NCBI GenBank assembly: GCA_016234495.1
Contig: JACRBI010000052.1
Coordinates: forward strand, 13,789-77,788
DNA length: 64,000 bases
From: Chloroflexota bacterium
Lineage (GTDB): Bacteria; Chloroflexota; Anaerolineae; Anaerolineales; Villigracilaceae
Direction: 5' to 3'
Shown here piece by piece: positions 5,033 to 63,222 of the stretch (position 1 is its first letter; each line of letters opens with the position of its first letter). Under the pieces are notes generated by a model, which was not told where the DNA came from, ran no database searches, and was given only the letters and a program-made list of their open reading frames with translations. Both the position numbers and the translations under genes were made by a program.

Positions 5033-6322
5033 ATGTCCACAAATGATCGCAAGTTAGGCTTTGCCACCCGCCAGCTTCACGCGGGCTATTCCCCCGACCC
5101 CACTACAGGGAGCCGCGCCGTGCCGTTGTATCAGACAACGAGCTATCAATTCAAGAACACCGAACACGCCGCGAATCTGTTCGCACTCAAAGAGTTGGGA
5201 AATATTTACACGCGTTTGATGAACCCGACCACCGATGTGCTCGAACAGCGCATTGCTTCGCTCGAAGGCGGAGTCGCAGCCCTCGCTTCGAGTTCGGGTC
5301 ATGCCGCGCAGGCGCAGGCGATCTTTACGCTGTGCAACGCGGGCGACCATATCGTGACATCCTCCCGTTTGTACGGCGGGACATACAGCCAGTTCAAGTA
5401 CAGCCTGCCCAAGTTGGGAATCGACGTGACCTTTGTTGACCCCTCCGACCCGAAGAATTTTGAAGCGGCGATCCAGCCGAACACAAAAATCATTTACGGT
5501 GAGACATTGGGCAACCCCGATATTTCCGTCTTCCCGTTTGAGGAAGTTGCGGCGATCGCGAAAAAGCATAATCTCGTATTGTTCATTGATAACACCTTCG
5601 CCACGCCGTACTTGTTCCGTCCGTTTGAATGGGGCGCAAATGTGATCACGCATTCCACAACCAAGTTCATCACCGGCAATGGGACTTCCATCGGCGGCAT
5701 CATCGTGGACGGCGGCAACTACGATTGGACGAGCGCGAAGTTCCCCAACTTCAACACCCCCGACCCGTCTTATCACGGGCTGGTGTACTCCTCCATTGCT
5801 GCGGCGGGACTTCCCCCCTTCGCGATCAAAGCTCGTGTGCATGTGCTGCGTGATATCGGCGCGTGCCAGTCACCGTTCAATTCATGGCAGACCTTGCTCG
5901 GCATCGAAACGCTCAACCTGCGCATGGATCGTCACACGCAGAACGCGCAAGCCGTGGCTGAATTTTTGGAGAAGCACCCGAAGGTCAACTGGGTCAAGTA
6001 TCCCGGGCTCAAGAGTCACCCCGATTACGACCGCGCGAAGAAATATCTTCCAAAGGGCGTCGGCGCGATGATGGGCTTCGGGGTCAAAGGCGGGCTGGAA
6101 GCAGGCAGGAAGTTCATCGAGAGTCTGCAACTGTTCAGCCACGTTGCTAATGTCGGCGACTCGCGCAGCCTTGCCATTCACCCGGGTTCCACCACGCACA
6201 GCCAGTTGACCGAAGAACAGCAGGTCACCGCCGGCGTCAGCCCGGACTTCGTGCGTCTCTCCATCGGTCTCGAGGATATTGATGATATTCTCTGGGATTT
6301 GGATCAGGCGCTCAACGCGTAA
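5033..6322 (+). CDS. metY: O-acetylhomoserine aminocarboxypropyltransferase (sulfhydrylase)
   Basis: [22 protein letters not shown] (PLP Lys), [13 protein letters not shown]. Confidence 0.93.
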
Positions 6323-45472: not shown

Positions 45473-45565
45473 GAAACAGAACCTGACGGGATGAACCTGT
45501 CAGGTTTTGTTTCTCAAACCATTCGAGAAATAATCTTAGGGCTAATAAAAAAAGAAGGACATCTT

Positions 45566-47638: not shown

Positions 47639-47656
47639 TAAGCCCCGGAGTCGTTC

Positions 47657-48148
47657 ATGAAAAAGATTTTTTACACTCTCACTTTTATACTTATTCTTGG
47701 CGTGATGTTCACCGGTGCGGCGTTCGCGCAGGGTGAACTCCCCACTGATGACGAAGTGAACGCAGTCGCACATCAACTGTATTGCCCCGTCTGCCAGAAC
47801 ACGCCGCTCGATGTCTGCCCGACGGACGCCTGCCGTGACTGGCGCGAACAGATCCGCGGGATGCTGGCGGAAGGAAAAACCGAAGATGAGATCCTGCAAT
47901 ATTTTGTCGATCAATTCGGTGACCGGGTTCTATCGGCACCGCCGGTCAGCACGAAATTCAACTGGATCATTTACATCATCCCGCCGCTGATCATCCTCGC
48001 AGGCGCGATCATCCTCTTCCGCTCGCTCAAAGAGTGGACAACGCCCAAAGCAACAGAAGCAGCTGCGGTCGAAGATGGAAGCGGCTCGTCATCCCCATCA
48101 GATGATTATGTGGCGCGTCTTGAGGAAGAGTTGAAGAAACAGAAATAA
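47657..48148 (+). CDS. ccmH: CcmH/CycL thiol oxidoreductase
   Basis: LYCPVCQN, I..ML.EG.TEDEI..YFV..FG..VL. Confidence 0.88.
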   Translation: MKKIFYTLTFILILGVMFTGAAFAQGELPTDDEVNAVAHQLYCPVCQNTPLDVCPTDACRDWREQIRGMLAEGKTEDEILQYFVDQFGDRVLSAPPVSTKFNWIIYIIPPLIILAGAIILFRSLKEWTTPKATEAAAVEDGSGSSSPSDDYVARLEEELKKQK

Positions 48149-48216
48149 ACCCCTCTCCCCTTGCCCCTCTCCCAAAATGGGAGGGGGGTTGGGGTGAGGG
48201 ATTTTTGGAGAATGTT

Positions 48217-48786
48217 ATGACTGAAGAAACAACAAATACAAAACGCGGCTTATCCATTTGGGTGCAAGTTGCCGTCTGGGTCTTTGTGGTGGGCTTGCTC
48301 GGGCTGGTGGCATTTGGCTTGAGACGCGCGCAAAACCCGATGGCAGTCGTTGGAGACCGCGTCCCGGACTTCGACCTTGTTTTTTATGAAGGCTATGAAT
48401 ACAACGGTCAAAAAGAAATGAAACTTTCCGACCTGCAAGGCAAGATTGTGCTGATCAACATCTGGGCTTCGTGGTGCAAACCCTGCGAACAGGAAGCGCC
48501 CGACCTTGAGGAAGCCTGGCAGTTTTACAAAGACAGCGATGACGTGGTCTTCATTGGCGTTGATTACGTGGATACGCCGGCCGGCGCAAATGAATACCTG
48601 ACAAAGTTCAACATCAGTTTTCCAAATGCGCCTGACTTGAAATCGAACATTTCGAGCATCTTAAACCGCCAGATGGGCGTGCCTGAAACTTATATCATTG
48701 ACCGCGAAGGTGTCCTGCAAAATATAAAGATCGGACCCTTTACGTCTGTGGATGAGATCATCTCTGTCATTGAAAGTGTTCGGTAG
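48217..48786 (+). CDS. ccmG: TlpA/CcmG-like membrane-anchored thioredoxin
   Basis: INIWASWCKPCEQE, GVPETY. Confidence 0.82.
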   Translation: MTEETTNTKRGLSIWVQVAVWVFVVGLLGLVAFGLRRAQNPMAVVGDRVPDFDLVFYEGYEYNGQKEMKLSDLQGKIVLINIWASWCKPCEQEAPDLEEAWQFYKDSDDVVFIGVDYVDTPAGANEYLTKFNISFPNAPDLKSNISSILNRQMGVPETYIIDREGVLQNIKIGPFTSVDEIISVIESVR

Positions 48787-48798
48787 GGAAAATCAAAC

Positions 48799-49305
48799 AT
48801 GGAATTAGGTTCAATCTTTCTTATTCTCGCTGTTGCCGTACTCATCGGCATTTATTTATATGTGCCATTCACTGCCCGCGCCCGCCGTGGACGCGCGAGC
48901 GAAACGCTGGAAGTCTCCGCCTTGAAAGCGGAACGCGACCGGGTGATCAACTCGCTGCAAGAATTGGATTTTGACCACAACCTCGGCAAGATCCCCGCCG
49001 AGGATTATCCTGCCCAGCGCGCGCTGCTCCTGCAAAAAGGCGCGGACATCCTGCGCAAACTGGATGAGCTGACTTCGGGAGCGGCTTCTGACAGCAACGT
49101 GGAATCACGGATCGAACAGGCTGCTGCCGCAGTCCGCGCCGATTCATCCGCCACGGTTAAGCCGCTCGACGATGACGATCTCGAATCAATGATCGCCGCG
49201 CGCCGCAAAGAGCACAAGAGCAAGTCCGCTGGTTTTTGCCCGAAATGCGGCAAGCCGGTGCTCGTCACTGATAAATTCTGCCCGTCCTGTGGGAAAGCTT
49301 TGTAA
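48799..49305 (+). CDS. CcmI-like N-terminal region with C-terminal zinc ribbon
   Basis: TM; L.ELDFD..LGKI..EDY; CPKCG..DKFCPSCG. Confidence 0.65.
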   Translation: MELGSIFLILAVAVLIGIYLYVPFTARARRGRASETLEVSALKAERDRVINSLQELDFDHNLGKIPAEDYPAQRALLLQKGADILRKLDELTSGAASDSNVESRIEQAAAAVRADSSATVKPLDDDDLESMIAARRKEHKSKSAGFCPKCGKPVLVTDKFCPSCGKAL

Positions 49306-49391
49306 TTAGCCAGTTAGCGATTGGCGATTAGCAGTTAGCCAATCGCTAAACGCCAACAGCCAAACGCTAAAAATAATCTTTGAGGAATTTA

Positions 49392-51317
49392 ATGAAACTA
49401 CGCCATATCGTTTTAATTACCGCAATCGCAATTTTTCTCGCCGCGTGCAACTTCACCCTCGCCGAGGATGTCACTCCCCCGCCGAATTATGTGCCGCCCG
49501 CCCCTGCGCCAACCATGGGACCATTGTTCCCGCCAAACACACCGGACGTTGAAAACGGCGCGGCGATCTATGTTGAAAAATGCGAACCCTGCCACGGCGT
49601 CACTGGCTTGGGCGACGGTCCGCAAGGTTTACAGCTGCCGGTTTCGGTTGCCGCAATCGGCTTGCCCGCCACCGCGCAAAAGGCATTGCCCTCCGACTGG
49701 TACATTCAGGTAACGCAAGGCAACCTCGAGCGCTTCATGCCGCCGTTCGCAAGTTTGAACGATCAGGAACGTTGGGACGTGGTTGCCTATGCATTAACCC
49801 TGCACACCAGCCCCGATCAAATCGCGCAAGGCAAAACACTCATTGAAGATAGCTGCGCCGATTGCGCGAAAACTTTCAGCAGCCTCGAGATGATGTCGGC
49901 GCTTTCCGAGAATGACCTGATCCAGTTGATGAAAAACGGTCAGGGTGATATCCCCGCTTTTGGAAAATCCTTTACCGATGAAGAAGCCGCCGCCGCTGCC
50001 GCTTATCTGCGGACTTTGACCTTCGCGGCTCCGCCCGCGCCGGTAGCTGTTGCCGCCACCGAGACACCCGTCAGCACTGAGGCGGCGACAACCCCGTCCG
50101 CTGAGACCACGCCAGTTGATGGCACGCAGGCCGCAGTCACGCCAGAAGCGGGTACTGAAGCCGCTGTCACACCTGTTGACGGCACACCTGCCGCAGCGAC
50201 GGAAACCCCAGTCGAAGCGACATTGGCAGAAGGCATGGGCAGTGTCAGCGGTTCGCTGGATAACCAGACGGGCAAGCCGCTGCCAGCCGATATGAAAGTG
50301 ACTCTGCGCGCCATGGAACACGGCAGCGACCCAAGCACCGGGCCGAAAGAGCTTGAGACGTTTGAAGGGCCGGTCAATGCCGATGGGACTTTTGTTTTCA
50401 ATAATGTTCCAGTGCCTGAAAACCGCATTTACATTGCAGATGTGGATGTGAACGGCTCAATTTATCAATCTGGTTTTACGATTGTGAAGGCCGGCGAAAC
50501 GGATCTGGTCATTCCGCCGATCACCATCTTCGAAGGCACATCCGATTATTCGACCTTGCAGATCACATCCCTGCAAATCTACTTTGACTTTGCTGTTGAA
50601 GGTTCGGCGCAGATGTTCTCGGTGTATTCGATTGCGAACATCACCGACAAGACCGTGACAGTGCAGATGACAGGGGCGCAGGATATTCCATTCATTGCCT
50701 TCGCAGAAGGTGCGGAGCCGCTTGGTTTTCAAGCCACGCAGGATACGGCGGCGTTCGTTCAAACAGCAGACGGCTTTGCCATGCCGCCCAGCACATCCAC
50801 CTACGGCCTGATCGCGTTCTCCTCACTCGTCAAAACTGAAAAAATGGAAATCTCGCAAGCCGCGCTGCTGCCCATTGACAATGTCAGCCTGTTCCTGCCC
50901 GAAGGCATGGAAGCAACAGGTGATGGATTAACAGATGAAGGAGTTCAACAGCAGAATGGCGTGAACTATCACGTGTACTCAGCAGGCAGCCTGGAAAAGG
51001 ATGAAAGCGTCAAGTTCACTGTGACCGGCAAGCCGATCTCGGTGGAAGTGAATCCGGATGTTTTGCAGAACAAGACGCTCCTGATCGGCGTCGGCGCGCT
51101 TGGGCTGGTCCTCGTTCTGGCAGGTGTTTGGTTGTTCCTGCGCGAACCAAAGAAAGTGGACGAAACCGACGACGAAGAGAATGAATTTGATGATCCCGAG
51201 TCGCTCATGGATGCCATCATCGCGCTGGACGATCTGCACCGCAGCGGCAAACTGTCTGATGAAGCCTATCAAAAGCGGCGTGACGAGTTAAAGAGCGCGT
51301 TGAAGAGAAGGTCATAA
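49392..51317 (+). CDS. Lipoprotein c-type cytochrome with Ala/Thr/Pro linker, large exported domain and C-terminal TM
   Basis: Lipobox FLAAC; one CEPCH heme motif; MPPF distal Met. Confidence 0.75.
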   Translation: MKLRHIVLITAIAIFLAACNFTLAEDVTPPPNYVPPAPAPTMGPLFPPNTPDVENGAAIYVEKCEPCHGVTGLGDGPQGLQLPVSVAAIGLPATAQKALPSDWYIQVTQGNLERFMPPFASLNDQERWDVVAYALTLHTSPDQIAQGKTLIEDSCADCAKTFSSLEMMSALSENDLIQLMKNGQGDIPAFGKSFTDEEAAAAAAYLRTLTFAAPPAPVAVAATETPVSTEAATTPSAETTPVDGTQAAVTPEAGTEAAVTPVDGTPAAATETPVEATLAEGMGSVSGSLDNQTGKPLPADMKVTLRAMEHGSDPSTGPKELETFEGPVNADGTFVFNNVPVPENRIYIADVDVNGSIYQSGFTIVKAGETDLVIPPITIFEGTSDYSTLQITSLQIYFDFAVEGSAQMFSVYSIANITDKTVTVQMTGAQDIPFIAFAEGAEPLGFQATQDTAAFVQTADGFAMPPSTSTYGLIAFSSLVKTEKMEISQAALLPIDNVSLFLPEGMEATGDGLTDEGVQQQNGVNYHVYSAGSLEKDESVKFTVTGKPISVEVNPDVLQNKTLLIGVGALGLVLVLAGVWLFLREPKKVDETDDEENEFDDPESLMDAIIALDDLHRSGKLSDEAYQKRRDELKSALKRRS

Positions 51318-51375
51318 TCATGTCATTGCCTCGCCGCGAAGATCACGCTCCTCGCAACGACGTATGGAATCATTA

Positions 51376-52074
51376 ATGATCGAAGTCAAAAAACTCGTCA
51401 AACGCTTTGGGCTAAAAACAATCCTGCGCGGACTGAATTTTTCAGTTGAGCCCGGTGAGTTTGTGGCATTGCTCGGCCCCAATGGCGCCGGCAAAACGAC
51501 ATTCCTGCGCATTCTTGCCACGCTCTCGCGCCCGTCGCTGGGCGATGTGAAGATTGCAGGCCACCACCTCCCCGCTGACGCCGCGCAAGTCCGCGCCAAA
51601 TTGGGCGTTGTCTCCCACATGCCTTTGCTATATCCAGACCTGACAGCCGAAGAAAACCTGCGCTTCTATGCCCGCATGTACGGCATAGGAAATATGGAAG
51701 CCCGCATCAGCGAAGTATTGGAAATGGTCGGGCTGGAAAATCGCCGCAAGGATTTAGTCCGCACCTTTTCACGCGGAATGCAGCAGCGACTCGCCATTGG
51801 GCGCGCGGTCATCCACGACCCGGAAGTGATGCTGTTCGATGAGCCTTATACCGGTCTGGATCAGGATGCCTCCGAAATGCTGGATGAGGTGCTGCGCTCC
51901 GTTGCCGCTGAAGGCCGCACCGTGGTCATGACCTCGCACGATCTGGCCCGCGCCGAAGACCTGGCCACCCGCTTTGACATTCTCTCGCGCGGCGTGATCA
52001 CAGCCTCTGCAACGCAAAAAGAATTAAAACAGACAAACCTGCTTGCGTTTTACAAACAGGCACTGGCGGATTGA
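51376..52074 (+). CDS. ccmA: Heme export ABC ATPase
   Basis: GPNGAGKTT, FSRGMQQRL, LFDEP. Confidence 0.9.
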   Translation: MIEVKKLVKRFGLKTILRGLNFSVEPGEFVALLGPNGAGKTTFLRILATLSRPSLGDVKIAGHHLPADAAQVRAKLGVVSHMPLLYPDLTAEENLRFYARMYGIGNMEARISEVLEMVGLENRRKDLVRTFSRGMQQRLAIGRAVIHDPEVMLFDEPYTGLDQDASEMLDEVLRSVAAEGRTVVMTSHDLARAEDLATRFDILSRGVITASATQKELKQTNLLAFYKQALAD

Positions 52075-52820
52075 TGATGGATAAAAAAACAGCGACCATA
52101 GACAGTAGACCGCAGACGATGAACCGCCCATCGTCCATCGTCCATCGTCCATCTTTTGTAAAAGCTACTTTGGCCATTGTGCAAAAAGACCTCTCGGCTG
52201 AGTTTCGTTCATTTGAATTGATCTCCGCCATGCTTGTCTTCTCGCTTTTGGTCATCATTATCTTCAACTTCGCGTTGGAATTGGATATCAAAGTGCGCGA
52301 GTCGGTTACTTCCGGCGTATTGTGGACGACCTTCGCATTTGCGGGCACGCTCGGGCTTAACCGATCCATGTCCGTGGAAAAAGACCGCGGCTGCATGGAC
52401 GGCCTGTTACTCGCACCGGTAGACCGCTCCGTCATTTATTTTGGCAAGGCTATCAGCAATCTTATCTTCATGCTCATTGTGGAAGTAATTGTCCTGCCCG
52501 TTTACAGCATGTTGTATAACGTAAACCTGTTTCGGCTTGACCTGCTCGGGGTGATCCTGCTCGGGTCCATCGGGTATGCGGCCGTTGGCACGCTGCTCTC
52601 GACCATGTCGGCGCAGACGCGCACGCGCGAAGTATTGCTGCCCATTTTGTTATTCCCAGTGGCAATGCCCGTTCTGTTGGCATCGGTCAAAGCCTGCAAC
52701 GGCTTGCTGACCGGCGCAGAATTTTCCGAAGTGCTCACGCCGCTAAATCTTCTCATCGTTTACGATGTCATCTTTATCGCCATCGCATTCATGGTGTTTG
52801 ACTTTGTAGTGGAGGAGTGA
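52074..52820 (+). CDS. ccmB: Heme export permease
   Basis: KDL.AEFRS, EKDRGCMDGLLLAP, LLPILLFP; TGATG coupling to ccmA. Confidence 0.9.
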   Translation: MMDKKTATIDSRPQTMNRPSSIVHRPSFVKATLAIVQKDLSAEFRSFELISAMLVFSLLVIIIFNFALELDIKVRESVTSGVLWTTFAFAGTLGLNRSMSVEKDRGCMDGLLLAPVDRSVIYFGKAISNLIFMLIVEVIVLPVYSMLYNVNLFRLDLLGVILLGSIGYAAVGTLLSTMSAQTRTREVLLPILLFPVAMPVLLASVKACNGLLTGAEFSEVLTPLNLLIVYDVIFIAIAFMVFDFVVEE

Positions 52821-52892
52821 TCTAGGAGAGAGTAAGAAGTAATACGCAGTTGAAATTGCTAACCGCTAATCGCTATATTTACAGGAGTTACC

Positions 52893-53588
52893 ATGCAAAA
52901 TAAACCCGTTCTATTAACCATTCTCGATGCAGCCTCCATTATTGTCCTCGGCATCGCCACGTATCTTGCGCTCGTGTTCGCCCCCACCGAAGCAGTGATG
53001 GGACAAGTTCAGCGTGTTTTCTATTTCCACATCGGCACAGCCTGGGTGGGATTGCTCGGATTCGTGATTGCGGCAGTGGCCGGCGTCGCATATCTCATTA
53101 CAAAAGATTCGCGCTGGGATCGCTTCGAAGTCGCTGCGGTGGAAGTAAGCACTGTCTTCTTCTTCATTACCATCGTGCTTGGCTCGATCTGGGCGCGCCC
53201 CGCCTGGAACACCTGGTGGACGTGGGATCCGCGCCTGACGACCGCCGCCATTACAGAGCTGATCTACATCGCCTACTTCATGCTCCGCAAGGGAATTGAA
53301 GACCCCGAAAAGCGCGCGCGCTTCGGCGCTGTCTACACATTATTGGGCGGTATCAGCGCGCCGATCACCTTCATGGTCATCCGTCTCTTCCGCACCATCC
53401 ATCCGATCGTCATCGGGTCGGCAAATGCCAATCAGGAAAAAATGAGCATGACCGGCGATATGAAGATCGCCTTCTTCTTTGGGCTGTTCGCCTTCACAGT
53501 CATCTTCATTGATTTGATCTGGCACCGCATCCGCCTCGGCAGTCTCGAAGAAAAAGTTGAACAGTTGAAACTCAAAGTTTCAATGTAA
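52893..53588 (+). CDS. ccmC: Heme delivery protein CcmC
   Basis: FYFH, WARPAWNTWWTWDPRLT, RTIHP. Confidence 0.93.
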   Translation: MQNKPVLLTILDAASIIVLGIATYLALVFAPTEAVMGQVQRVFYFHIGTAWVGLLGFVIAAVAGVAYLITKDSRWDRFEVAAVEVSTVFFFITIVLGSIWARPAWNTWWTWDPRLTTAAITELIYIAYFMLRKGIEDPEKRARFGAVYTLLGGISAPITFMVIRLFRTIHPIVIGSANANQEKMSMTGDMKIAFFFGLFAFTVIFIDLIWHRIRLGSLEEKVEQLKLKVSM

Positions 53589-53796: not shown

Positions 53797-54007
53797 GAAC
53801 TGGACTTTCGCTTGGCATGGTTTGAACGCTTCGCGTTCAGACCTCGAAGCAAAATCGGGAGATTTTCCACTCCAAACAAAAGTTTCATAAGAAAATCCTG
53901 CTCCTTCTGTTTTGGGAGCAGGAAATATGACAAATTCAATCCATTTAAAGTTGAGAATTGCTGTTATCAGAAAGTCCGCTTATAATGTAGGCGGACTTTT
54001 TGATCGT

Positions 54008-55615
54008 ATGACTCGCCGCTGGCTGCTCGGCCTCTTATCCATTCTGATTGCCTTAACCGGCACAGCTTTTACGCGTGCCCTTGCCGCCAACCCTCCGCCT
54101 GGCCCAGACCGTTTTACAGTCATCACCGTGGACTACACCGCCTTCGAATGGTATTTTGCCACCTGGAAGGGATCGAATGTTGTCTGTTCTGTGAAGACAG
54201 ATCACGAAGGTCCCCCCAACCCGGAGGAAGTATATCGGGATTGCGAACTGGCGGTCTACAATAAGTGGGTCTCCCAGCCGCCGTGCATTTACAGAGATTC
54301 AAGTTTGTGCGATGGGTACTACACTTTCCCCGTAAATAGTTGGGCTGCCCAAAAAGAGATTCCGATGCAGCTCCCACCCCCGGCTGCATGGATTTCGCTG
54401 GAAGACTGCCAGCCGGTGCTGAGCACGTCCACCAATATATGCGAAACCACACCGACGCTCGTGATCGCCGGTTACGAACCTGTTCAGAATGAGCGAATCA
54501 TCCGAATCGAAGGGACATATAATGGTCAGCCTTTCGACTGCGACCAGACCGATGTATGCAAATTCCACATCCCTGAAACGGATGTAAAAGGCGTAAGGGT
54601 GGAGTTCTGGGCTTATTCATCTTATGGCGATAGCAGCCTGATTTACAGTGCGCAAGTCCGTGTGCAAAAAGCAAGCGAGAATGATCCCGACCAGGCCTAT
54701 TGGTATGTGGATGTTCTATCTTCGCAATGGGTTGGACAGGCTGTAGCCATGTGCTCCGACTCATGGAATGTGTTCCCGCCGGTTGGCGGACCTCCCGCCT
54801 GGCTGACCACGCCCAAACAAAGCGAAGAACTCAGCAGCGACATTCCCTACACCTACCTCGCGAAAAATTTAATCCTGCAAGGCGCGGTGGATGCAAGTTC
54901 CTGCACCGATGGCGGAATTTCTCCGGACGGCATGGTGAATCAATGCGGGCTGGAAATGGCGCGCGAAGCAGTGACCAACTGGCAAAATCAATTTGATGAA
55001 TTGATCTTAACCACCGCCCGCGAAACAAGCGTACCCGCGCGATTACTTAAAAATCTATTCGCAAGAGAAAGCCAGTTTTGGCCGGGCAGTGGTCAGGCTC
55101 CGGGTGATACGGGTCTGGGTCAACTGACAGAGAACGGCGCAGATACCACCCTGTTCTGGAATCCATCTTTTTATAATCAGTTTTGTGTGCTGGCATTGCC
55201 GGGCGAAACTTGCGGCAAAGGCTACATGCACCTGACCCCGGAAGAAAGACAGGCGCTGCGCCTCGCGCTGGTGACAAGCGTTAACGCAACCTGCAAAGAT
55301 TGTCCGCTTGGGATCGACCTGGCGCGCGCAGATTTTTCAGTCGGCGTTTTTGCGCACAGCATGATCGGAAGCTGCAAGCAGGCGGGACAGGTCATCACAA
55401 ATTACACCGGCAAATCGCCAGGCGATGTAGCCTCCTATGAAGACCTGTGGAAGTTCTCCCTCGTCAATTACAACGCCGGCGGAGGGTGCCTGGCAGAGGT
55501 CATCACCCGCTCGCTTGGCGAAGGCAACACGATTCTCACGTGGGACAACACTTCGCCATTTATCAGCGGCGCATGTGCCGGCGCGCTGGACTATGTGAAC
55601 GACATCAGCAAATGA
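54008..55615 (+). CDS. Exported Cys-rich protein with C-terminal lytic transglycosylase (SLT)-like domain
   Basis: Signal peptide; ARESQF (catalytic E-S), GLGQL, NYNAG. Confidence 0.65.
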   Translation: MTRRWLLGLLSILIALTGTAFTRALAANPPPGPDRFTVITVDYTAFEWYFATWKGSNVVCSVKTDHEGPPNPEEVYRDCELAVYNKWVSQPPCIYRDSSLCDGYYTFPVNSWAAQKEIPMQLPPPAAWISLEDCQPVLSTSTNICETTPTLVIAGYEPVQNERIIRIEGTYNGQPFDCDQTDVCKFHIPETDVKGVRVEFWAYSSYGDSSLIYSAQVRVQKASENDPDQAYWYVDVLSSQWVGQAVAMCSDSWNVFPPVGGPPAWLTTPKQSEELSSDIPYTYLAKNLILQGAVDASSCTDGGISPDGMVNQCGLEMAREAVTNWQNQFDELILTTARETSVPARLLKNLFARESQFWPGSGQAPGDTGLGQLTENGADTTLFWNPSFYNQFCVLALPGETCGKGYMHLTPEERQALRLALVTSVNATCKDCPLGIDLARADFSVGVFAHSMIGSCKQAGQVITNYTGKSPGDVASYEDLWKFSLVNYNAGGGCLAEVITRSLGEGNTILTWDNTSPFISGACAGALDYVNDISK

Positions 55616-55669: not shown

Positions 55670-56803
55670 TTAATGCACGTGGGTGCAGGGATCTTCTTCC
55701 AGCGGCAGGTTCTTCATCGCAAATCCAAAAGCCATAATGCCAGCCGAGAAGAGACCAATCGTCACGGCCAGTTCCAGAACATGCGGAACGTACGGTTCGC
55801 CCGCCATGCTGACCAAGCCGATATTCAGCCGGTACAGAATCAGCCCAAGCAGGGTCAGCAGGCCGGCGCGGAAGATCCACGGGGAACTCTTGCGGAATTT
55901 CGGGACGAGCAGGATTGCAATCGGCAGGATGATCCCAATCAGGTTTTCCAGAATAAACATGTTGCCCTGGAATGTGCCGCTGAAGATCAGCCCCAATTCA
56001 CCGGCATAGGCGAGGTCGCCCACTTTGATGAGCAGGAGCAATCCCAGCGTAATCAACATGCCGCGGGCGAGTCCCTGAAAAATTTCGTTGCGGACCTGTC
56101 CGCCAAAGACCTGATGTGAAATTGCGCATTCGAAGATCACCATACCAAAACCGACGGCAATGGCCGAGACAAGGAAGATCAACGGAAGCAGGGATGTGTA
56201 CCAAAGCGGATGCATCTTGAAGGGCACAATCAGAAACAGCGACCCCAAAGAGGATTGGTGCATGGTCGAGAGGGTCACGCCGAGAATCACCACCGGGATG
56301 GAAATTTTCTTTACGAACTGCAGCAGGCTTGTCCAGCCGAGCTTCTCGAGCAAGGGCGGGCTGAATTCCAGAAACAAAACCGCAGTGTAGGTCATCACGC
56401 ACATGCCAACCTCAAACAGCGGGGAATGGAGGTTCCAGTAAACGAGCATGTGCCAGATGCGCTGCGGTTGTCCTAAATCCACCAGCAAGGCGAGGATCAC
56501 CATCAGGTAGCCGAGGAAACCGGTCAGCAGGGCCGGGCGCAGTATGGGGCGATACTTCTCGATGTGGAAAATGTGAACGGTCGCCGCGAGAACGAAAGCG
56601 CCAGCCGAGATCGGCACGCCCACGAGCAGATCAAAACTGATCCAGATTCCCCACGGGCGCGAGTCGCTCAAATTGGACACATGGCTAAATCCATCCACCC
56701 AGCGGAACATGGCCGCGAAGGCGCCCAGCGCGGCAAGAAACACCAGGATGAGCGTGCCAATGGAAACCTGTTTCTTGACAACGGGAAGGGTGATGCTCGT
56801 CAT
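55670..56803 (-). CDS. NrfD/HybB/PsrC-family quinol-interacting membrane subunit
   Basis: PWGIWI.FD, VDLGQP.R.W, SPLFEV..C, LSTMHQSSLG. Confidence 0.9.
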   Translation of the reverse strand: MTSITLPVVKKQVSIGTLILVFLAALGAFAAMFRWVDGFSHVSNLSDSRPWGIWISFDLLVGVPISAGAFVLAATVHIFHIEKYRPILRPALLTGFLGYLMVILALLVDLGQPQRIWHMLVYWNLHSPLFEVGMCVMTYTAVLFLEFSPPLLEKLGWTSLLQFVKKISIPVVILGVTLSTMHQSSLGSLFLIVPFKMHPLWYTSLLPLIFLVSAIAVGFGMVIFECAISHQVFGGQVRNEIFQGLARGMLITLGLLLLIKVGDLAYAGELGLIFSGTFQGNMFILENLIGIILPIAILLVPKFRKSSPWIFRAGLLTLLGLILYRLNIGLVSMAGEPYVPHVLELAVTIGLFSAGIMAFGFAMKNLPLEEDPCTHVH

Positions 56804-57672
56804 GACTTCACCTCCTCTTCCGGAGTGGATGTCTTATTTTTGGTGCGCTGATAAACGGCAGACATCGCCCCGCCCACCCCGAAGAATATGGCCGGCACAA
56901 TGTTCAACGCCCATTGAGTGCGATCCGGCAGCGGCTGGGGATCGAGACCCGGCAGGCCAATCGCTTCAAACGGGACACCAGAAAGAATCAGCACCGAAGT
57001 CCCGCCGCCCTCGAATTCGCCATAGACCCGGTCTTCGAAATATTTGCCGGGGTTGACGGAAATTCGCATCTTGGCAATTTCCAGCAGATCGCCGCGCCTG
57101 CCAAAAAGCAAAGCCTGTTTGGGGCAAATATCGGCGCAGGCCGGGCCAGCCTCGCGGTGGTAACACATCTCACATTTGCGAATGAAAGGATACGCCAGCG
57201 ACCAATCATAGCGCGGGACGCCGAAGGCGCAGGCTTGCATACAATAGCGGCAGCCGATGCACTTGTACGCGTCGTAAACCACCGGGCCGTTTTCTATTTT
57301 GTGCAGCGCGCCAACCGGGCACGAGGCCGCGCAGGCCGGGTCTACGCAGTGCATACATTGATATTTGCGGAAAGACTTTTGCGCGCCATCCTCAGATTGG
57401 TACAATTTGATCAACGTGAAGGTGTTCCCGCTCAGGTCGTCCACATTTTCTTCGGGGAGCTTGTTGTAGGCTTTGCAGGCGCGTTCACATTCGCGGCAGC
57501 CGCTGCATTGCGTTGCGTCGTAAAGCAGCGCCCAATGTTCTTCGAGCGGAAGTTCTTCATTGGATGAAGCGCCTGCTGAAACACAAGCATTGGCTGTCAA
57601 AGCCAGGCTGCCGAGACCGGCCCCGGCAATCTTCAAGAATTCGCGGCGGGAGAGATTGGATTTATTTTGCAT
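56800..57672 (-). CDS. Tat-exported 4x[4Fe-4S] subunit (HybA/NrfC-like) with C-terminal TM
   Basis: SRREFLK; CSGCRECERAC, CMHCVDPACAASC, CIGCRYCMQAC, CEMC..CADIC. Confidence 0.9.
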   Translation of the reverse strand: MQNKSNLSRREFLKIAGAGLGSLALTANACVSAGASSNEELPLEEHWALLYDATQCSGCRECERACKAYNKLPEENVDDLSGNTFTLIKLYQSEDGAQKSFRKYQCMHCVDPACAASCPVGALHKIENGPVVYDAYKCIGCRYCMQACAFGVPRYDWSLAYPFIRKCEMCYHREAGPACADICPKQALLFGRRGDLLEIAKMRISVNPGKYFEDRVYGEFEGGGTSVLILSGVPFEAIGLPGLDPQPLPDRTQWALNIVPAIFFGVGGAMSAVYQRTKNKTSTPEEEVKS

Positions 57673-57676
57673 GACG

Positions 57677-58897
57677 TTATTCCTTCCCCTGCGGGTCATT
57701 CTGCTTTGTGGATTTGGAACGGGTCAACCTTGCGCGGAGGCTGGAGAGTACACCCCAAAGTTTTTCTCCCTTTGAGCTGCCTTCCATCTTGCGCGCAGTG
57801 GTGAATTCGAAGACGCCGATGATCGCAGCGACACCCACCAGCCAGTAAGCCCAACTCCAACTACGTTTGGGAGCGGCGACCAGTTTGTTCAAGTCAGTTT
57901 CAGTCAACGCTGGGAAATCTTCGTTCTCCCACGCAATGGTATCCAGTTCTTCGGCAGTGTAGCCGAGAGCCACAAAATCGGCGCGCAGTTTCTCGTCCAT
58001 GATGTGACAGTCGGTGCATTGCGGCGCAGTTTCGAGGCGCGAAACGCGATGGACGACCGGCCAGTTCATCTGGTCTTTGACAAAACTACCCAGCGCTTCA
58101 TGGCTGGTGCCCGTCCGTTCACCCACACTGGCCGAAACCTCGGAGGTGCAGTCGAAGCCCTTGAAGAAGGTGCTGGTATCTTCGTGCTGATAATTGAACA
58201 GGAATGTGTGCGGCACATCCAGGGTGTGGCAGGAGACGCAGGGGATGTTTTCCTGGAGGTGCATTTTGCCGAGAGACTCTTCCATCTCCCCCAAGTCTTC
58301 CGCGCTGTGACAACTTTTGCACATGTCATCCGGGTTATCGAACAACACCTTCTGGCTGTGCGGGTCGTGGCAGTTCACACAGCGGACTTCGTTGGGCGTG
58401 GTATGCCCGGATAAACGAACTTCACCCAGAGTGGTCGGGTGACATGTCCCGCAGTATTCCTCATCTGAGCGCACTGGAATTTCCGCGGGGGGATGCTCCG
58501 CGCTGCCCTGCCCGTGACAGGCCTCGCACGAAACGCCTTCGGCAATGTATTGTTCAGTGTTCGGGTCGTACGTTGCCTTGTGGCACAGGAGGCACTCGTC
58601 AGCATATTCCATGTTAGCCCAGCCTTCCTGAAAAACAGAGTCGTCGAAGGAGTGGGCATGCGGACTTTCCAGCCAGGCATCATGTTTATCCGGGTGGCAT
58701 TCGACGCAGGCCTTTTCGGGTGGAGCGGCTGTCGGCGGCGGAGTGGACTCTGCTACGGGTTGGGAAATGCCGGTTGTCTGCGCGGCAGGCCGGAGGTCGG
58801 TTTGAGCCGATGCAGTGCCGACGAGCAGGATCATGCTTAACAGTCCGATCAGCAATGCGGTGAGAAAAATCTTATTACGATTGAGTCGCATGTTCAT
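57677..58897 (-). CDS. Octaheme c-type cytochrome with signal peptide and C-terminal TM anchor
   Basis: 8 CxxCH: CVECH, CLLCH, CEACH, CGTCH, CVNCH, CKSCH, CVSCH, CTDCH. Confidence 0.9.
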   Translation of the reverse strand: MNMRLNRNKIFLTALLIGLLSMILLVGTASAQTDLRPAAQTTGISQPVAESTPPPTAAPPEKACVECHPDKHDAWLESPHAHSFDDSVFQEGWANMEYADECLLCHKATYDPNTEQYIAEGVSCEACHGQGSAEHPPAEIPVRSDEEYCGTCHPTTLGEVRLSGHTTPNEVRCVNCHDPHSQKVLFDNPDDMCKSCHSAEDLGEMEESLGKMHLQENIPCVSCHTLDVPHTFLFNYQHEDTSTFFKGFDCTSEVSASVGERTGTSHEALGSFVKDQMNWPVVHRVSRLETAPQCTDCHIMDEKLRADFVALGYTAEELDTIAWENEDFPALTETDLNKLVAAPKRSWSWAYWLVGVAAIIGVFEFTTARKMEGSSKGEKLWGVLSSLRARLTRSKSTKQNDPQGKE

Positions 58898-58932
58898 TTT
58901 GCGAACCTCGAAGAACAGGATGTAAAAATTAT

Positions 58933-59850
58933 TTATGAACTGACTGTCAGCGGGTTGGCCATCTCTGAAGTCAGGAACGTCCAAAAGGCGGCTTGTGATT
59001 TTGACTCGGGGCGGCGGCTGTTGTGGCCGATGTAAATATTGCGGCAGATGTTCAAATCGCGCACACGGATGCGGGCAACTTTGCCGGGGCAGATTCGGTC
59101 AACGACCATTTGCGAAACAAATCCAACTCCGAGCCCTTCCTGGACAGAAAGAGCAATCGCTTCAGAATTTCCGAGAGTGATGAGGATACGCAGGTCTGAG
59201 ATCGAAACCTTGTGCTGTTTGAGCGCCTCGGTGACGGCGTGGAATGTGCCGGAAGAGGATTCGCGCATGATGAAGTCTGCATCGAGCAATTCTTCTGCTT
59301 CTATCTCCTCGCGCTGCGCCCATGGGTGACCCAACGGGGTGATGAGGACGATCGGGTCACAGATGAACGAAACAGCTTCGATATCCGGGTAGTTGGCGTA
59401 GTCCATGCTGAAGAGCGCAAAGTGGACTTCCCCATCCACCAGATTTTGCAGGGCGTCGGTCTGGGGCGTGACCTGACAGGTGACCCGCACCTGGGGATGC
59501 CTGTGATGAAAGCTGGTCAACAAGTGCGGGAGGATGTATTTTCCGGGCGTGGTGCTGCACCCAACGATCAGGTGTCCGAAAATCCCTCCTTTTAGTGAAG
59601 CCATTGTTTCGTCAATCCGCATGGACAGCATGACAGCCTCTCTTGCCAGTGGCAGCAAAGCCATGCCGGCATCGGTCAGTTCCAGGTTTCGGCCATTTCG
59701 GAAAAATAACTGCGTGTCGAAATGGCGTTCCAACCCCTGAATGTGCTGGCTGACGCTGGGCTGGGTCATATGCAGCTGCTGGGCGGCCTGAGTGAAATTT
59801 AGCGCCTCTGCCGCGACTACAAAAACGTTGAGTTGATGGACATCTAACAT
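58933..59850 (-). CDS. LysR-family transcriptional regulator (CysL-like)
   Basis: NFTQAA..LHMTQPSVSQHI..LE, LF.R.GR..ELT.AG, RE.SSGT. Confidence 0.92.
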   Translation of the reverse strand: MLDVHQLNVFVVAAEALNFTQAAQQLHMTQPSVSQHIQGLERHFDTQLFFRNGRNLELTDAGMALLPLAREAVMLSMRIDETMASLKGGIFGHLIVGCSTTPGKYILPHLLTSFHHRHPQVRVTCQVTPQTDALQNLVDGEVHFALFSMDYANYPDIEAVSFICDPIVLITPLGHPWAQREEIEAEELLDADFIMRESSSGTFHAVTEALKQHKVSISDLRILITLGNSEAIALSVQEGLGVGFVSQMVVDRICPGKVARIRVRDLNICRNIYIGHNSRRPESKSQAAFWTFLTSEMANPLTVSS

Positions 59851-59919
59851 GGTTATACCTTTCTTGTGAATATTAACACAAAACACATAAGTCTACAAAG
59901 AGTTTAATGGTGTTTCATA

Positions 59920-60036: not shown

Positions 60037-61491
60037 ATGAAAACCATGAGGCTATTTCGACAGATAAGTTTATTCATCACCACCGCCCTGTTATTTTCAA
60101 GCTGTGCCCCGGCCAGCCCTGTGGATGCCTCCGCCAATCAAACCACTGCCCAACTGGCGGACGTAAAACTTTCCATTCCGGCCGTACTCCAGCCCGAAAT
60201 GGGAACTGGCGAAGGCGCCGGACCGAATGAATGCCTGAACTGCCACTCGGATAAGGATCGCCTGATCGAAACCGCCAAGCCGGTGGTGGAAGCAGCCGAA
60301 AGCGAGTCAAAAGGCGTTGGCTGAGGGGGCGAGGTGGCTCCGTTGGAGCCATGGGAGAAAGTGCTCGTTGACCTCAAGAAGTTCCCCGAGACGGTGCATG
60401 GTCACATTGAATGCACGGCTTGTCATCAGGGAAGCCAATCGTCAGATAAGGAAACAGCCCATAAGGATATGACCGCCCGTCCGAGCGAGGGAGACCCCAA
60501 CGCCTGCGGCGAATGTCACCCGGATGTGGCCGGAGTTTTCTCCAGCAGCCTGCATTCCGATTTGCAGGGATATTGGACAGCCCTGGATGCGCGTTCCGCG
60601 CCGGAGAATCACCCGCCGCTTGAGCAGGCTTTCAATAATCATTGCTCACGCTGTCACACCTCCTGCGGCGACTGCCATGTGTCGCAGCCTGCCAGCGTGG
60701 GTGGCGGCTTTTTCGAAGGACACGTGTTCGCCCGCACCCCGCCAATGACGCGCTCCTGCACGGCCTGCCACGGCAGCCGCGTGGGCAATGAATTCCTCGG
60801 CAAAAATGAGGGCTTCCCCGGCGACGTTCACTTCCGCGACGGGCGCATGAACTGCGTGGATTGCCACAGCGGACATGAACTTCACGGTCAGCCGGCTGAA
60901 TGCACGCAATGTCATACCAGCCCGGAAGCCATGACGATGAAGCCGGCCGATCATCGCTACGATGGCGTGCAGTCCCCCACTTGCGAGTCATGCCACCCCA
61001 ACACCACGGTCGGCAAGGACAACATTGAAATGCACACCGTCCACGGCGCGGATTTATCCTGTCAGATCTGCCATTCGATCACGTACACCAGCTGCGACGG
61101 ATGCCATGTGGCGATCAGCGAAAAGACAGGCAAGCCGTATTTCGAAACCGAGGCAACTTACTTCACCTTCCTGATCGGAAAGAATCCGTTGATCAGTTAC
61201 ACCCGTCCCTACAAGTTTGTGCCGCTGCGGCATGTGCCGGTCGCCGAGGATAGTTTCTCTTTCTACGGCGAGGACCTGCTCCCGAATTTCAACGCAGCCT
61301 CCACCTGGGTCTATGCCACCCCGCACAACATCCAAAGGAACACCCCGCAGGCCGCCTCGTGCAATGCTTGTCATGGCAATGCAAGCTTGTTCCTGACCGC
61401 AGACAAAGTTAATCCCGAGGAGTTGGAAGCCAATCAAAATGTGATCGTTGAGAGAATTCCTGCTCCCGTCGAAGAATCAACACCCAAATAA
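60037..61491 (+). CDS. Probable selenocysteine-containing dodecaheme cytochrome c lipoprotein (484 aa, in-frame TGA at 60322-60324 = residue 96)
   Basis: Track ORFs 59980..60324 and 60334..61491 share a frame and are separated only by TGA (..SKGVG-U-GGEVAPLEPWEK..); lipobox LLFSSC upstream; 1 + 11 CxxCH motifs. Confidence 0.82.
60334..60352 (+). promoter_or_regulatory. Candidate bacterial SECIS hairpin
   Basis: GTGGCTCC-GTT-GGAGCCAT stem-loop starting about 10 nt after the TGA, G-first loop. Confidence 0.7.
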
Positions 61492-61506: not shown

Positions 61507-63222
61507 ATGACCAAGAAACTGTATTTGCCCATCGTTCTATTGCTGGCACTCAGCATTTTACTGGGAGCCTGCGGAACGCCCGCTGTCGCCACTGAACCGC
61601 CAGTTGTGCAGACCGAACCACCAGTCATAGCCACTGAACCGCCTGTTATCGCCCCCGATGCCCAGGCCCTGTTCACCGACCTCATCGCCAGTCTCCCCGC
61701 AGACAAGGGCTATGGTTCGGTCAAGTCTGCCGCGTTGAATGAAGAACTCGCAGACAAGGCGCCCTTCCTGCTCGACGTGCGCGAAACCGCCGAAGTTGAG
61801 AAGGATGGCTACATCGAAGGCTCGGTCAACATCCCGGTGCGCGAAGTGCTCAACAACCTCGACAAACTGCCCGGCCTCGACGAACCCATCGTAGTCACTT
61901 GCGCCTCCGGTCACCGCGGCGGCATGGTGATGGCATCCCTTAAACTGCTGGGCTACACAAACGTCCGCAACCTGAACGGCGGTTTGAATGCGTGGAAGAA
62001 AGCCGAACTGCCAGTTGTGACCGGCTCCATGCCCGCAGCCCCGGCCGTCGTCGGCACAGCCATCATCGCCGACCAGGCACTATTCGACATGCTCAATGAT
62101 TTCCTCTCGACCCTGCCCGAGGGATTCAACGCTGTAAAATCTGACAAACTCTCTGAAGAACTTGCCAGCGGCACCCTGCCCGCGATCATTGACGTGCGCA
62201 GCAAAGCCGAATGGGACAAGGATGGATACATCGAAGGCTCTGTAAACATTCCGTTCAGCGACCTGTTTGCAAACCTCGACCAGATTCCCGCGGATAAAGA
62301 CGCGCGCATCATCGTGCTGTGCGCATCCGGCCACCGCGGCGGAATCACCATGATGGCCCTGCGCCTGATGGGCTACACAAACGTCATCAACCTGAATGGC
62401 GGCTTGAACGGCTGGAAGTCGGCTGGCCTGCCCGTAAAAGGCTTGGTCGCCGAGATGGCAGCCTTCATCACCAGCCTGCCCGCCGATGCCGGTTTCTACA
62501 GCATCAAATCAGACAAGCTCAACGAACTGCTGGTCGAAACCCCGCCCTTCATTGTGGACGTGCGCGAAGCCTCCGAACTCGAAGCCAATGGCTACATCGC
62601 CGGCGCGATCAACATCCCGATCCGCGAACTGCTGAAGAACCTCGACAAACTGCCGGGCAAGGATCAGAAAATCATCATCACCTGCGCATCCGGTCATCGC
62701 GGCTCACTCGGCATGATGTCGCTGCGCCTGCTGGGATATACGGACGTCGTCAACCTCAACGGCGGAATGAACGGCTGGATCAAGGCTGAATTCCCGGTCG
62801 AGAAGACCGCTCCCGCCGCCCCGACGGCTGGCACCGCTCCCGAAGTGGATGCCGACAAACTGGCTGCTCTCGACGCTTACCTGAGCGCCCTGCCTGAAGG
62901 TTTTGGCGCCGTAAAATCCCCCGATTTCAACACCGAGCTCGTTGCCGGGACAATTCCCTTCATCCTCGACGTTCGCACCCAGGAAGAATGGGACGCTGAC
63001 GGCCACATCGACGGCGCTGTGCTGGTTTCGATCAACGACCTGGCCGCCAACCTGGCCAAACTTCCCGCCGACAAGGCTGCGCCCATCGTTGTCACCTGCA
63101 AGTCCGGGCACCGCGGCGCCATGGCGCAAATGTACCTGCAATTCCTCGGCTACACCAGCATCCGCAACTTAAACGGCGGCATGAACGGCTGGATCGCCGC
63201 CGAACTGCCTGTCGTCAAGTAA
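61507..63222 (+). CDS. Lipoprotein with four tandem rhodanese (sulfurtransferase) domains
   Basis: Lipobox LLGAC; four LDVR/IDVR..E..GYI.G.. blocks with loops CASGHR x3 and CKSGHR; NLNGG.N.W. Confidence 0.9.
   Translation: MTKKLYLPIVLLLALSILLGACGTPAVATEPPVVQTEPPVIATEPPVIAPDAQALFTDLIASLPADKGYGSVKSAALNEELADKAPFLLDVRETAEVEKDGYIEGSVNIPVREVLNNLDKLPGLDEPIVVTCASGHRGGMVMASLKLLGYTNVRNLNGGLNAWKKAELPVVTGSMPAAPAVVGTAIIADQALFDMLNDFLSTLPEGFNAVKSDKLSEELASGTLPAIIDVRSKAEWDKDGYIEGSVNIPFSDLFANLDQIPADKDARIIVLCASGHRGGITMMALRLMGYTNVINLNGGLNGWKSAGLPVKGLVAEMAAFITSLPADAGFYSIKSDKLNELLVETPPFIVDVREASELEANGYIAGAINIPIRELLKNLDKLPGKDQKIIITCASGHRGSLGMMSLRLLGYTDVVNLNGGMNGWIKAEFPVEKTAPAAPTAGTAPEVDADKLAALDAYLSALPEGFGAVKSPDFNTELVAGTIPFILDVRTQEEWDADGHIDGAVLVSINDLAANLAKLPADKAAPIVVTCKSGHRGAMAQMYLQFLGYTSIRNLNGGMNGWIAAELPVVK

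Follow-up and report, generated by a model that had tools for sequence, protein, structure and literature searches.

Within a 64,000-nucleotide (nt) stretch of a Chloroflexota genome (assembly GCA_016234495.1, contig JACRBI010000052.1; this whole stretch is referred to as the window), two adjacent open reading frames (ORFs) on the forward strand are separated by a single in-frame UGA codon, which raises the question of whether they are two genes or one gene in which UGA is read as selenocysteine (Sec). The comparative evidence indicates that 60037-61491 is very probably a genuine selenoprotein gene, in which UGA is decoded as residue Sec96 of a 12-heme c-type cytochrome lipoprotein. The identification draws on the conservation of the UGA, on selection for a downstream hairpin and its decay where the UGA is missing, on homologs with Cys at the same site, on a standard genetic code and on the logic of protein export. 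An initial annotation, made from the letters of the window, had put forward a hidden selenoprotein read through UGA, and every comparative test that was run supported this core claim.

An in-frame UGA is conserved within one continuous gene

Translation of the locus gives 484 codons with a single internal stop, and the two ORFs are one frame broken only by the TGA at 60322-60324, as the initial annotation had described. It had also placed the only export signal and one CxxCH heme motif in the upstream part and 11 CxxCH motifs, without a signal peptide, in the downstream part. Inspection of the sequence bore this out: the lipobox LLFSSC and the motif CLNCH are found upstream, and the 12 CxxCH motifs are divided into 1 before and 11 after the TGA. 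The context of the stop in the window reads ESKGVG-*-GGEVAPLEPWEK, and the ORF called from GTG 60334 begins MAPLEPWEKVLVDLKK / MAPLEPWEKVLV, with no hydrophobic leader. Because the 11 downstream heme motifs need extracytoplasmic heme attachment and bring no signal of their own, the product of 385 amino acids (aa) alone could not be matured.

A protein search returned 2066 relatives, and a profile search gave 1147 representative clusters, of which 189 have an E-value no higher than 1e-30. One genome per species was scanned, which gave at least 573 encoding stretches; the counts below that refer to 80 loci are for the best 80 of these, which are from Chloroflexota throughout (Anaerolineales, Promineifilaceae, Ardenticatenaceae, Ca. 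Leptofilum and others). The same architecture as that of the window gene was found in 77 of the 80 loci. The codon aligned with the Sec position is TGA in 77 and TGG in two (L053 and L061), and in the last one (L074) the site falls beyond the end of the contig. In all 77 UGA loci, the upstream and downstream parts share one frame and are spaced identically, and the protein context across the stop is conserved as SE[SN][KE]G[VE]G-U-GG[EDS]VAPLEPWEKV. An upstream fragment with signal peptide and lipobox Cys is present in essentially all loci, and C23 is invariant in full-length homologs. All loci keep heme motif 1 in the form C-[LVIM]-x-C-H-x-[DN]-[KQR], and each invariant Cys is part of either the lipobox or one of the 12 CxxCH motifs.

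The possibility that UGA is reassigned in this organism was ruled out, since TGA terminates 11 of the 44 long ORFs in the window, the neighboring HmcB-like gene among them. The genetic code is therefore standard, with TGA as an ordinary stop.

A hairpin downstream of the UGA is under selection

A hairpin of the bacterial selenocysteine insertion sequence (SECIS) type lies just downstream of the UGA (Table 1) and can be extended to 8 bp in the window (60334-60352). Its loop starts 17 nt past the UGA, in agreement with the stem-loop at SECIS distance reported in the initial annotation. The published bacterial SECIS consensus places the apical loop 16-37 nt past the UGA. Compared with bacterial SECIS elements (E. 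coli fdhF type; bSECISearch consensus), the element shares this loop distance and a G among the first loop bases, but it is very compact: the conserved stem has 6 bp, the loop is the 3-nt GUU, and a conserved bulged U is absent. It sits wholly inside the codons for V-A-P-L-E-P.

An 81-nt fold of the window sequence was no better than those of shuffled sequences (z = -0.36). The case for the hairpin therefore rests on comparison with relatives and not on fold energy. In the 63 distinct sequences used to assess covariation, 378 of 378 cells are paired, and the covariation score was reached by none of 500 shuffles. The second pair is G-C in 57 sequences, C-G in 3 and G-U in 3; the change from G-C to C-G, found in L023, L060, L064 and L073, costs an Ala to Pro and a Pro to Ala replacement together, and the change from G-C to G-U is found in L044, L045 and L050. 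The 17-nt core GUGGCUCCGUUGGAGCC is invariant, and the only differences within the stem preserve pairing.

The hairpin also constrains synonymous sites. When 75 distinct UGA-type sequences are compared, codons +4 to +8 (GUG GCU CCG UUG GAG) have zero entropy at their third base, and the synonymous sites just outside these codons have an entropy of 0.9-1.9 bits. Gene-wide usage of the five codons (GTG.45, GCT.13, CCG.41, TTG.21, GAG.37) would give this combination at a joint frequency of ~0.002 per sequence. In relatives that lack the UGA, the hairpin core is broken in 7 of 8 cases (TGC twice, TTA, CTG, a TCA paralog and TGG twice); the one relative with TGT keeps the core intact, which presumably reflects a recent conversion. 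As judged from these alignments, the hairpin is under RNA-level selection that is tied to the UGA.

Word depth in the source metagenome rises from ~37 to 120-153 at window positions 60282-60379, and several contigs start or end there. We attribute these breaks to the invariant hairpin sequence that is shared among co-occurring relatives; the SECIS acts as a short inter-strain repeat that breaks assembly graphs.

Cysteine homologs and selenocysteine usage in the lineage

The residue at the Sec site was examined in relatives without the UGA. Among full-length close relatives, it is Cys in three (P0106, P0111 and P0117, encoded by TGC or TGT), Trp in two, Leu in two and Ser in one. TGG (Trp) variants occur in L053, L061, P0075 and P0116. 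The commonest state among distant full-length representatives is Cys, with a GxGCGG motif in 12 clusters, and many clusters in the profile search begin at profile positions 102-106, which marks the split form. The initial annotation had proposed a search for homologs with Cys or TGA at this site and had regarded non-Cys residues as evidence against Sec. Both TGA and Cys homologs were found, and Cys is the most frequent residue in distant relatives; Trp, Leu, Ser and still other residues occur as well.

SelB has been reported in Anaerolineales single-cell genomes and in Anaerolinea thermophila, some with Sec-type formate dehydrogenases (PMC4959059). In addition, a YeeE/YedE-like membrane protein of the sulfur-transporter type (L046:4776-5336, forward strand) has an in-frame UGA at 5064 within the motif GMALTGY-U-PGTCAAGG. 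Downstream of it, a 7-bp GC stem carries a 3-nt GGU loop 18 nt after the UGA, the same geometry as in the 12-heme gene, and the 79% identical ortholog at L056:5202-5756 (reverse strand) has Cys and no hairpin. We regard the L046 protein as a probable second selenoprotein of these Chloroflexota. Indirect support for the use of Sec by the lineage comes both from SelB and formate dehydrogenases in Anaerolineales and from the L046/L056 pair of probable Sec and Cys forms.

Some results weigh against a Sec-containing product. No Rfam SECIS model matches around the UGA, either at gathering thresholds or in permissive mode. Trp, Leu or Ser stands at the site, without Cys, in some lineages, so the residue is dispensable for folding and for some scaffold function. 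Searches of the 64-kb window and of the flanks, which amount to ~1.7 Mb in total, gave no tRNA-Sec and no selA, selB or selD, but about one match would be expected by chance in a search of this size, so this absence says little. ARAGORN predicted no tRNA-Sec in the window or in 60 loci. The sole tblastn match for E. coli SelA, SelB and SelD in the window and all flanks, in L017, turned out to be IF-2.

Other explanations of the in-frame UGA were weighed against these data. An error of sequencing or assembly, or a recent mutation that inactivated the gene, could be suspected from the bare presence of a stop codon and from the assembly contigs that break near the site. However, the breaks are accounted for by the hairpin sequence common to co-occurring relatives, and TGA stands at the same codon in the genomes of 77 other species. 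Read-level evidence, which the initial annotation had suggested as a check for error, agrees with this: in the source groundwater metagenome run the TGA has a word depth of ~37x with no variant, and an independent contig from an aquatic metagenome, with differences at 10 other positions, has the TGA as well. An artefact or pseudogene is already refuted by the conservation data, and its probability is negligible. The two ORFs could also be coupled genes, in which a stop at UGA 60322 frees a ~95-aa monoheme lipoprotein and re-initiation at GTG 60334 makes a 385-aa protein with 11 hemes. This is the current annotation, as database gene callers all predict ~385-aa proteins from this GTG, and the Gly-Gly-Glu codons after the UGA provide a purine-rich, Shine-Dalgarno-like GAGGGGG 4-10 nt before it. 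Nevertheless, we consider this arrangement extremely unlikely, since the 385-aa product lacks a signal peptide and thus a way to have its 11 heme motifs matured outside the cytoplasm, and since the shared frame and identical spacing in all 77 loci are not required for re-initiation. Continuous Cys-containing homologs exist, the putative Shine-Dalgarno sequence falls on GGN GGN codons whose third positions vary freely, and neither a ribosome-binding site nor a start codon explains the invariance of codons +5 to +8 and the compensatory change from G-C to C-G. Finally, a near-cognate or suppressor tRNA could insert Trp, Cys or Gly at the UGA, with the hairpin only stimulating readthrough, which would fit the TGG variants and the lack of Sec machinery in the window and flanks. 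Such readthrough without Sec is very unlikely as well, because the hairpin has the geometry of a bacterial SECIS, with a G-first 3-nt loop at 17 nt after the UGA, because the second Sec/Cys gene in the same lineage has this geometry too, and because the Sec trait is documented in Anaerolineales. Moreover, Cys is the alternative that keeps GxGxGG (and in P0111 also the rhodanese partner described below), which is a hallmark of Sec sites, whereas in the Trp and Leu variants hairpin and partner gene are both gone, and these variants resemble loss-of-function branches rather than equivalents.

The cytochrome matches no known family of heme-containing selenoproteins

We then compared the 12-heme selenoprotein with families that have been described. 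The multiheme cytochrome c selenoprotein MccSep (ExtKL, GSU2937-2936) of Geobacter sulfurreducens is a polysulfide/selenite reductase that is encoded beside extH, a gene for a rhodanese-like lipoprotein (PMC13510729); its structures are available (PDB 9WT8-9WTC), and the family is represented by NCBIfam NF040886. It has five hemes and carries Sec325, in a D-G-U-P motif, on a C-terminal Ig-like domain beside a His/Cys heme, and it needs C239 (PMC13510729). MccSep was found in Desulfobacterota and Nitrospirota, and Chloroflexota go unmentioned (PMC13510729). Published in 2026, it is the only characterised multiheme selenoenzyme. The initial annotation had cited ExtKL as a multiheme selenoprotein with fewer hemes whose gene adjoins a rhodanese gene, which is correct for the protein now characterised as MccSep.

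The two systems have several features in common: an exported multiheme c-type cytochrome, a single Sec from an in-frame UGA with a downstream hairpin, mis-splitting into two genes by annotation, the occurrence of Sec- and Cys-type members, and a gene cluster that also encodes a lipoprotein of the rhodanese family. They differ in the number of hemes (12 versus 5), in the place of Sec, which is N-terminal here (residue 96 of 484, GxG-U-GG) and C-terminal in MccSep (U325), and in their distribution (Chloroflexota versus Desulfobacterota and Nitrospirota). In addition, no Cys outside the CxxCH motifs and the lipobox is conserved here, whereas MccSep needs its heme-ligating C239. Although chains of 9WT8 and 9WT9 are in the copy of the PDB sequences that was searched, no match to MccSep was obtained with the single sequence at E up to 1 or with the family profile at E up to 10, and NF040886 did not match the selenoprotein at E up to 0.01. 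Membership in the MccSep/ExtKL family was rejected because no sequence homology was detected, the protein has 12 CxxCH motifs rather than five, its Sec is N-terminal and it has no heme-ligating Cys. Similarly, the rhodanese partner was rejected as an ExtH (NF040901), with 16.5 bits against a cutoff of 200 and four generic rhodanese domains.

Other diheme or multiheme c-type cytochromes of sulfur redox metabolism, such as the His/Cys-ligated enzymes TsdA and SoxAX and the Sec variants of the octaheme tetrathionate reductase (OTR) family, use a chalcogen side chain near or on a heme, as the protein may do with Sec96. Sec-containing members of the OTR family (TIGR04315) have been catalogued (PMC13188914). 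The selenoprotein did not match TIGR04315, and the neighboring octaheme protein gave a weak partial match (30 bits against a cutoff of 375). In NCBIfam and Pfam, the selenoprotein had no family-level match and hit generic c7/c3 domains only. The best match among PDB sequences was partial, to the 'cytochrome c' 28pb_A (E = 3.9e-7), followed by weak NrfA-type matches. Heme-related families in the May 2026 catalogue of prokaryotic selenoproteins are ExtKL, the GSU2204 family, UshA-like proteins and octaheme tetrathionate reductase (PMC13188914), and the 12-heme family matches none of them. No description of a 12-heme Chloroflexota selenoprotein family was found in the literature. These results are in line with the suggestion of the initial annotation that the family is probably undescribed.

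Structure was modelled with AlphaFold2 on the natural Cys-type ortholog P0111 in place of the window sequence. The model has a mean predicted local distance difference test (pLDDT) score of 87 and a predicted template modelling (pTM) score of 0.81, and it contains a beta-hairpin-rich insert between hemes 11 and 12, with strands predicted at 370-445 in P0111 numbering. An earlier run with a shallow N-terminal alignment had a pLDDT of 63 and gave no Foldseek matches. The later model had no Foldseek neighbor in the PDB at E up to 0.001, in a library that ends on 2026-04-08 and may lack 9WT8, and with a method that is weak on heme-packed folds.

A four-rhodanese lipoprotein is encoded next to the Sec-type cytochrome

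The features of the window gene and its surroundings are listed in Table 1. A gene for a lipoprotein with four rhodanese domains lies directly 3' of the cytochrome gene in all UGA-type loci (77 plus the window), and it is also present downstream of the Cys-type gene for P0111 (L082). It is absent downstream of the Trp variants in L053 and L061 and of the Leu variants P0086 and P0074. The Ser variant P0063 (L087) is a tandem paralog 5' of a normal UGA copy, and the rhodanese gene is present after that copy. The tandem duplication (L087:833-5846) comprises the full-length Ser paralog, which has lost the hairpin, the UGA copy, which is called as 93 + 382 aa, and a 585-aa rhodanese protein. Furthermore, P0173 and P0175, two of the representative clusters, are natural fusions of the cytochrome scaffold with two C-terminal rhodanese domains. 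P0173 starts right after the Sec position and is probably a UGA-type fusion protein. From these arrangements we infer that the four-rhodanese lipoprotein is probably a partner of the cytochrome, and one that may carry sulfur or selenium.

A general rule that Cys or Sec always comes with an adjacent rhodanese gene fails at the distant relative P0152; the link between the Sec site and the rhodanese is specific within the clade of the forms described above and not universal across the superfamily. In L061 (13065-15211), where the Trp variant has no rhodanese gene, two DsrE/DsrF-like small proteins and a Cys-type YeeE/YedE-like transporter are encoded downstream, so that sulfur-handling genes are still near.

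Table 1. Features of the selenoprotein gene and its neighborhood, in window coordinates
Feature	Position	Strand	Remarks
Complete selenoprotein gene, 12-heme c-type cytochrome lipoprotein precursor with Sec96 (very probable)	60037..61491	+	484 codons, one internal TGA, stop TAA 61489-61491
Signal peptide ending in lipobox LLFSS-C (Cys23, codon 60103-60105)	60037..60105	+	Only export signal of the protein
Heme motif 1 CLNCH, residues 66-70	60232..60246	+	Sole heme motif 5' of the UGA
In-frame UGA, very probably read as Sec96, motif G-V-G-U-G-G	60322..60324	+	TGA in 77/80 loci and the window
C-terminal 388 residues, carrying heme motifs 2-12 but no separate signal peptide	60325..61488	+	Sequence
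SECIS-type hairpin: GGCUCC (60336-60341), loop GUU (60342-60344), GGAGCC (60345-60350)	60336..60350	+	Comparison with relatives
Lipoprotein with four rhodanese domains, loops C-[AK]-SGHRG	61507..63222	+	Pfam Rhodanese matched four times, E = 8e-84
LysR-type regulator, divergent	58933..59886	-	Homolog beside the cytochrome-rhodanese pair in 72/80 loci; HTH_1 and LysR_substrate in the L082 counterpart
Octaheme c-type cytochrome, 8 CxxCH, N-terminal signal, C-terminal hydrophobic anchor	57677..58984	-	Cytochrome Pfam domains; homolog in 49/80
HmcB/HybA-like 4Fe-4S ferredoxin subunit, twin-arginine-type leader RREFLK	56800..57699	-	HmcB E = 2e-74, HybA E = 2e-70; 52/80
NrfD/HmcC-like integral membrane quinone-interacting subunit	55670..56803	-	NCBIfam HmcC E = 1e-86, Pfam NrfD; 52/80
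567-aa protein	53912..55615	+	No NCBIfam match; beside the membrane module
System I cytochrome c maturation cluster	45491..53588	+	7-15 kb upstream of the selenoprotein gene
CcmF/NrfE-like	45491-47638	+	
645-aa protein with cytochrome c domain	49380-51317	+	Amid the Ccm genes
CcmA-like ATPase	51364-52074	+	
CcmB-like	52071-52820	+	
CcmC-like	52893-53588	+	
SAM (S-adenosylmethionine) riboswitch RF00162	4793-4911	+	76.9 bits; just 5' of an O-acetylhomoserine sulfhydrylase gene (5033-6322)

On the other side of the cytochrome gene, the divergent LysR-type protein is probably the regulator of the cluster, and the octaheme cytochrome is probably the electron link from the membrane module to the selenoprotein. 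Homologs of the 567-aa protein lie directly 5' of the cytochrome-rhodanese pair in 16 loci without the NrfD, iron-sulfur (FeS) and octaheme module.

Possible function of the 12-heme selenoprotein

How would such a protein act? Sec96 may be a heme ligand or a carrier of sulfur or selenium. In the mechanism that we propose, Sec96, in the Gly-rich loop GxG-U-GG between hemes 1 and 2, would be the catalytic nucleophile. The four-rhodanese lipoprotein, as carrier of a persulfide, would pass sulfane sulfur or a selenium species to it, and a Se-S adduct would form. Electrons passing along the heme chain would cleave this adduct reductively, and in most genomes they would come from quinol through the adjacent module of NrfD-like subunit, FeS subunit and octaheme cytochrome. 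Such a system would reduce polysulfide or sulfane sulfur (or selenite) at the outer side of the cytoplasmic membrane, and it would be a functional analogue, not a homolog, of Geobacter MccSep plus ExtH. A function as sulfane-sulfur or selenium reductase, in that direction, is suggested by the adjacency of the rhodanese gene, its absence in the Trp and Leu variants, the fusions, the adjacent NrfD/FeS/octaheme module and the MccSep precedent; we hold this tentatively, as a proposal that comes close to an even chance.

A parallel exists in Wolinella succinogenes, where the polysulfide-sulfur transferase Sud hands sulfane sulfur to the polysulfide reductase Psr. In both cases a rhodanese-type extracytoplasmic carrier would serve a quinol-fed reductase with NrfD-type and 4Fe-4S subunits. 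Unlike in Psr, the catalytic subunit here would be a multiheme selenoprotein, and no molybdopterin subunit is encoded in the cluster.

Against the proposed reductase speak the distant Cys-type relative P0152, which has no adjacent rhodanese gene, and the makeup of the heme sites. There are ~12 conserved non-motif His residues for 12 hemes and no conserved heme-ligating Cys of the kind that MccSep needs. Sec96 therefore need not be an axial heme ligand, and the active-site chemistry of MccSep, a relay of Sec plus Cys, is not transferable. Furthermore, NrfD/FeS modules run in either direction, so that they do not fix the direction of electron flow. A genuine selenoprotein with a function other than sulfane-sulfur reduction, which partly overlaps with our proposal, is a real possibility, although it stays somewhat short of an even chance. 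It might be an oxidative enzyme for thiosulfate or sulfide oxidation to quinone, with Sec like the heme-ligating Cys of TsdA/SoxAX; it might mainly serve selenite/tellurite reduction or detoxification; or it might be an electron conduit to extracellular acceptors, in which Sec tunes one heme only. In favor of such functions, NrfD/FeS modules of the Hmc and Qrc kind are able to reduce quinone, selenite is a further substrate of MccSep, the name of the ExtH family refers to selenite/tellurite reduction, and some distant relatives have matches to Pfam MtrC/MtrF-like domains. Where the site holds neither Sec nor Cys, the variants retain the full set of 12 hemes as well as the membrane module, which points to a Sec-independent electron-transfer role of the scaffold. 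On the other hand, rhodanese adjacency, co-loss and fusion point to sulfane sulfur or selenium as the species handled, and the ~12 conserved His make axial ligation by Sec unnecessary, but these arguments separate neither the direction nor the substrate. The protein could represent a second, independently evolved class of heme-selenium enzyme, with a 12-heme wire, Sec beside or on a heme, no partner Cys and a substrate handed off by a four-rhodanese lipoprotein; this is possible, though less likely than not.

A mis-annotated family in Chloroflexota

The best 120 protein matches are nearly all ~385 aa long and called from just after the UGA site. Database entries, including the RefSeq-derived P0112, are 'hypothetical proteins' of ~385-400 aa that start just after the UGA, as the initial annotation had foreseen in stating that standard annotation would split the gene. 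Other entries are mislabelled as sulfurtransferases (JGI), which probably stems from the cytochrome-rhodanese fusions P0173 and P0175. The sequence record thus indicates a large, widespread and mis-annotated family in Chloroflexota (Anaerolineae and relatives). Because the entries are split or mislabelled, metabolic reconstructions of Chloroflexota miss the 12-heme selenoprotein, and the strongly conserved 17-nt hairpin provides an easy signature for annotation repair as well as a defined SECIS for Chloroflexota.

The family is new and unrelated in sequence to MccSep, has more than twice as many hemes and places its Sec differently. With no heme-ligating Cys, it offers an independent test of selenium-heme cooperation in chalcogen-bond chemistry. 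If the protein is a sulfur or selenium reductase, a group that is very abundant but poorly cultured would gain a respiratory role. At least some hundreds of species of Anaerolineae-type Chloroflexota, which are abundant in groundwater, sediments and activated sludge, would then be unrecognised respirers of elemental sulfur, polysulfide or selenium.

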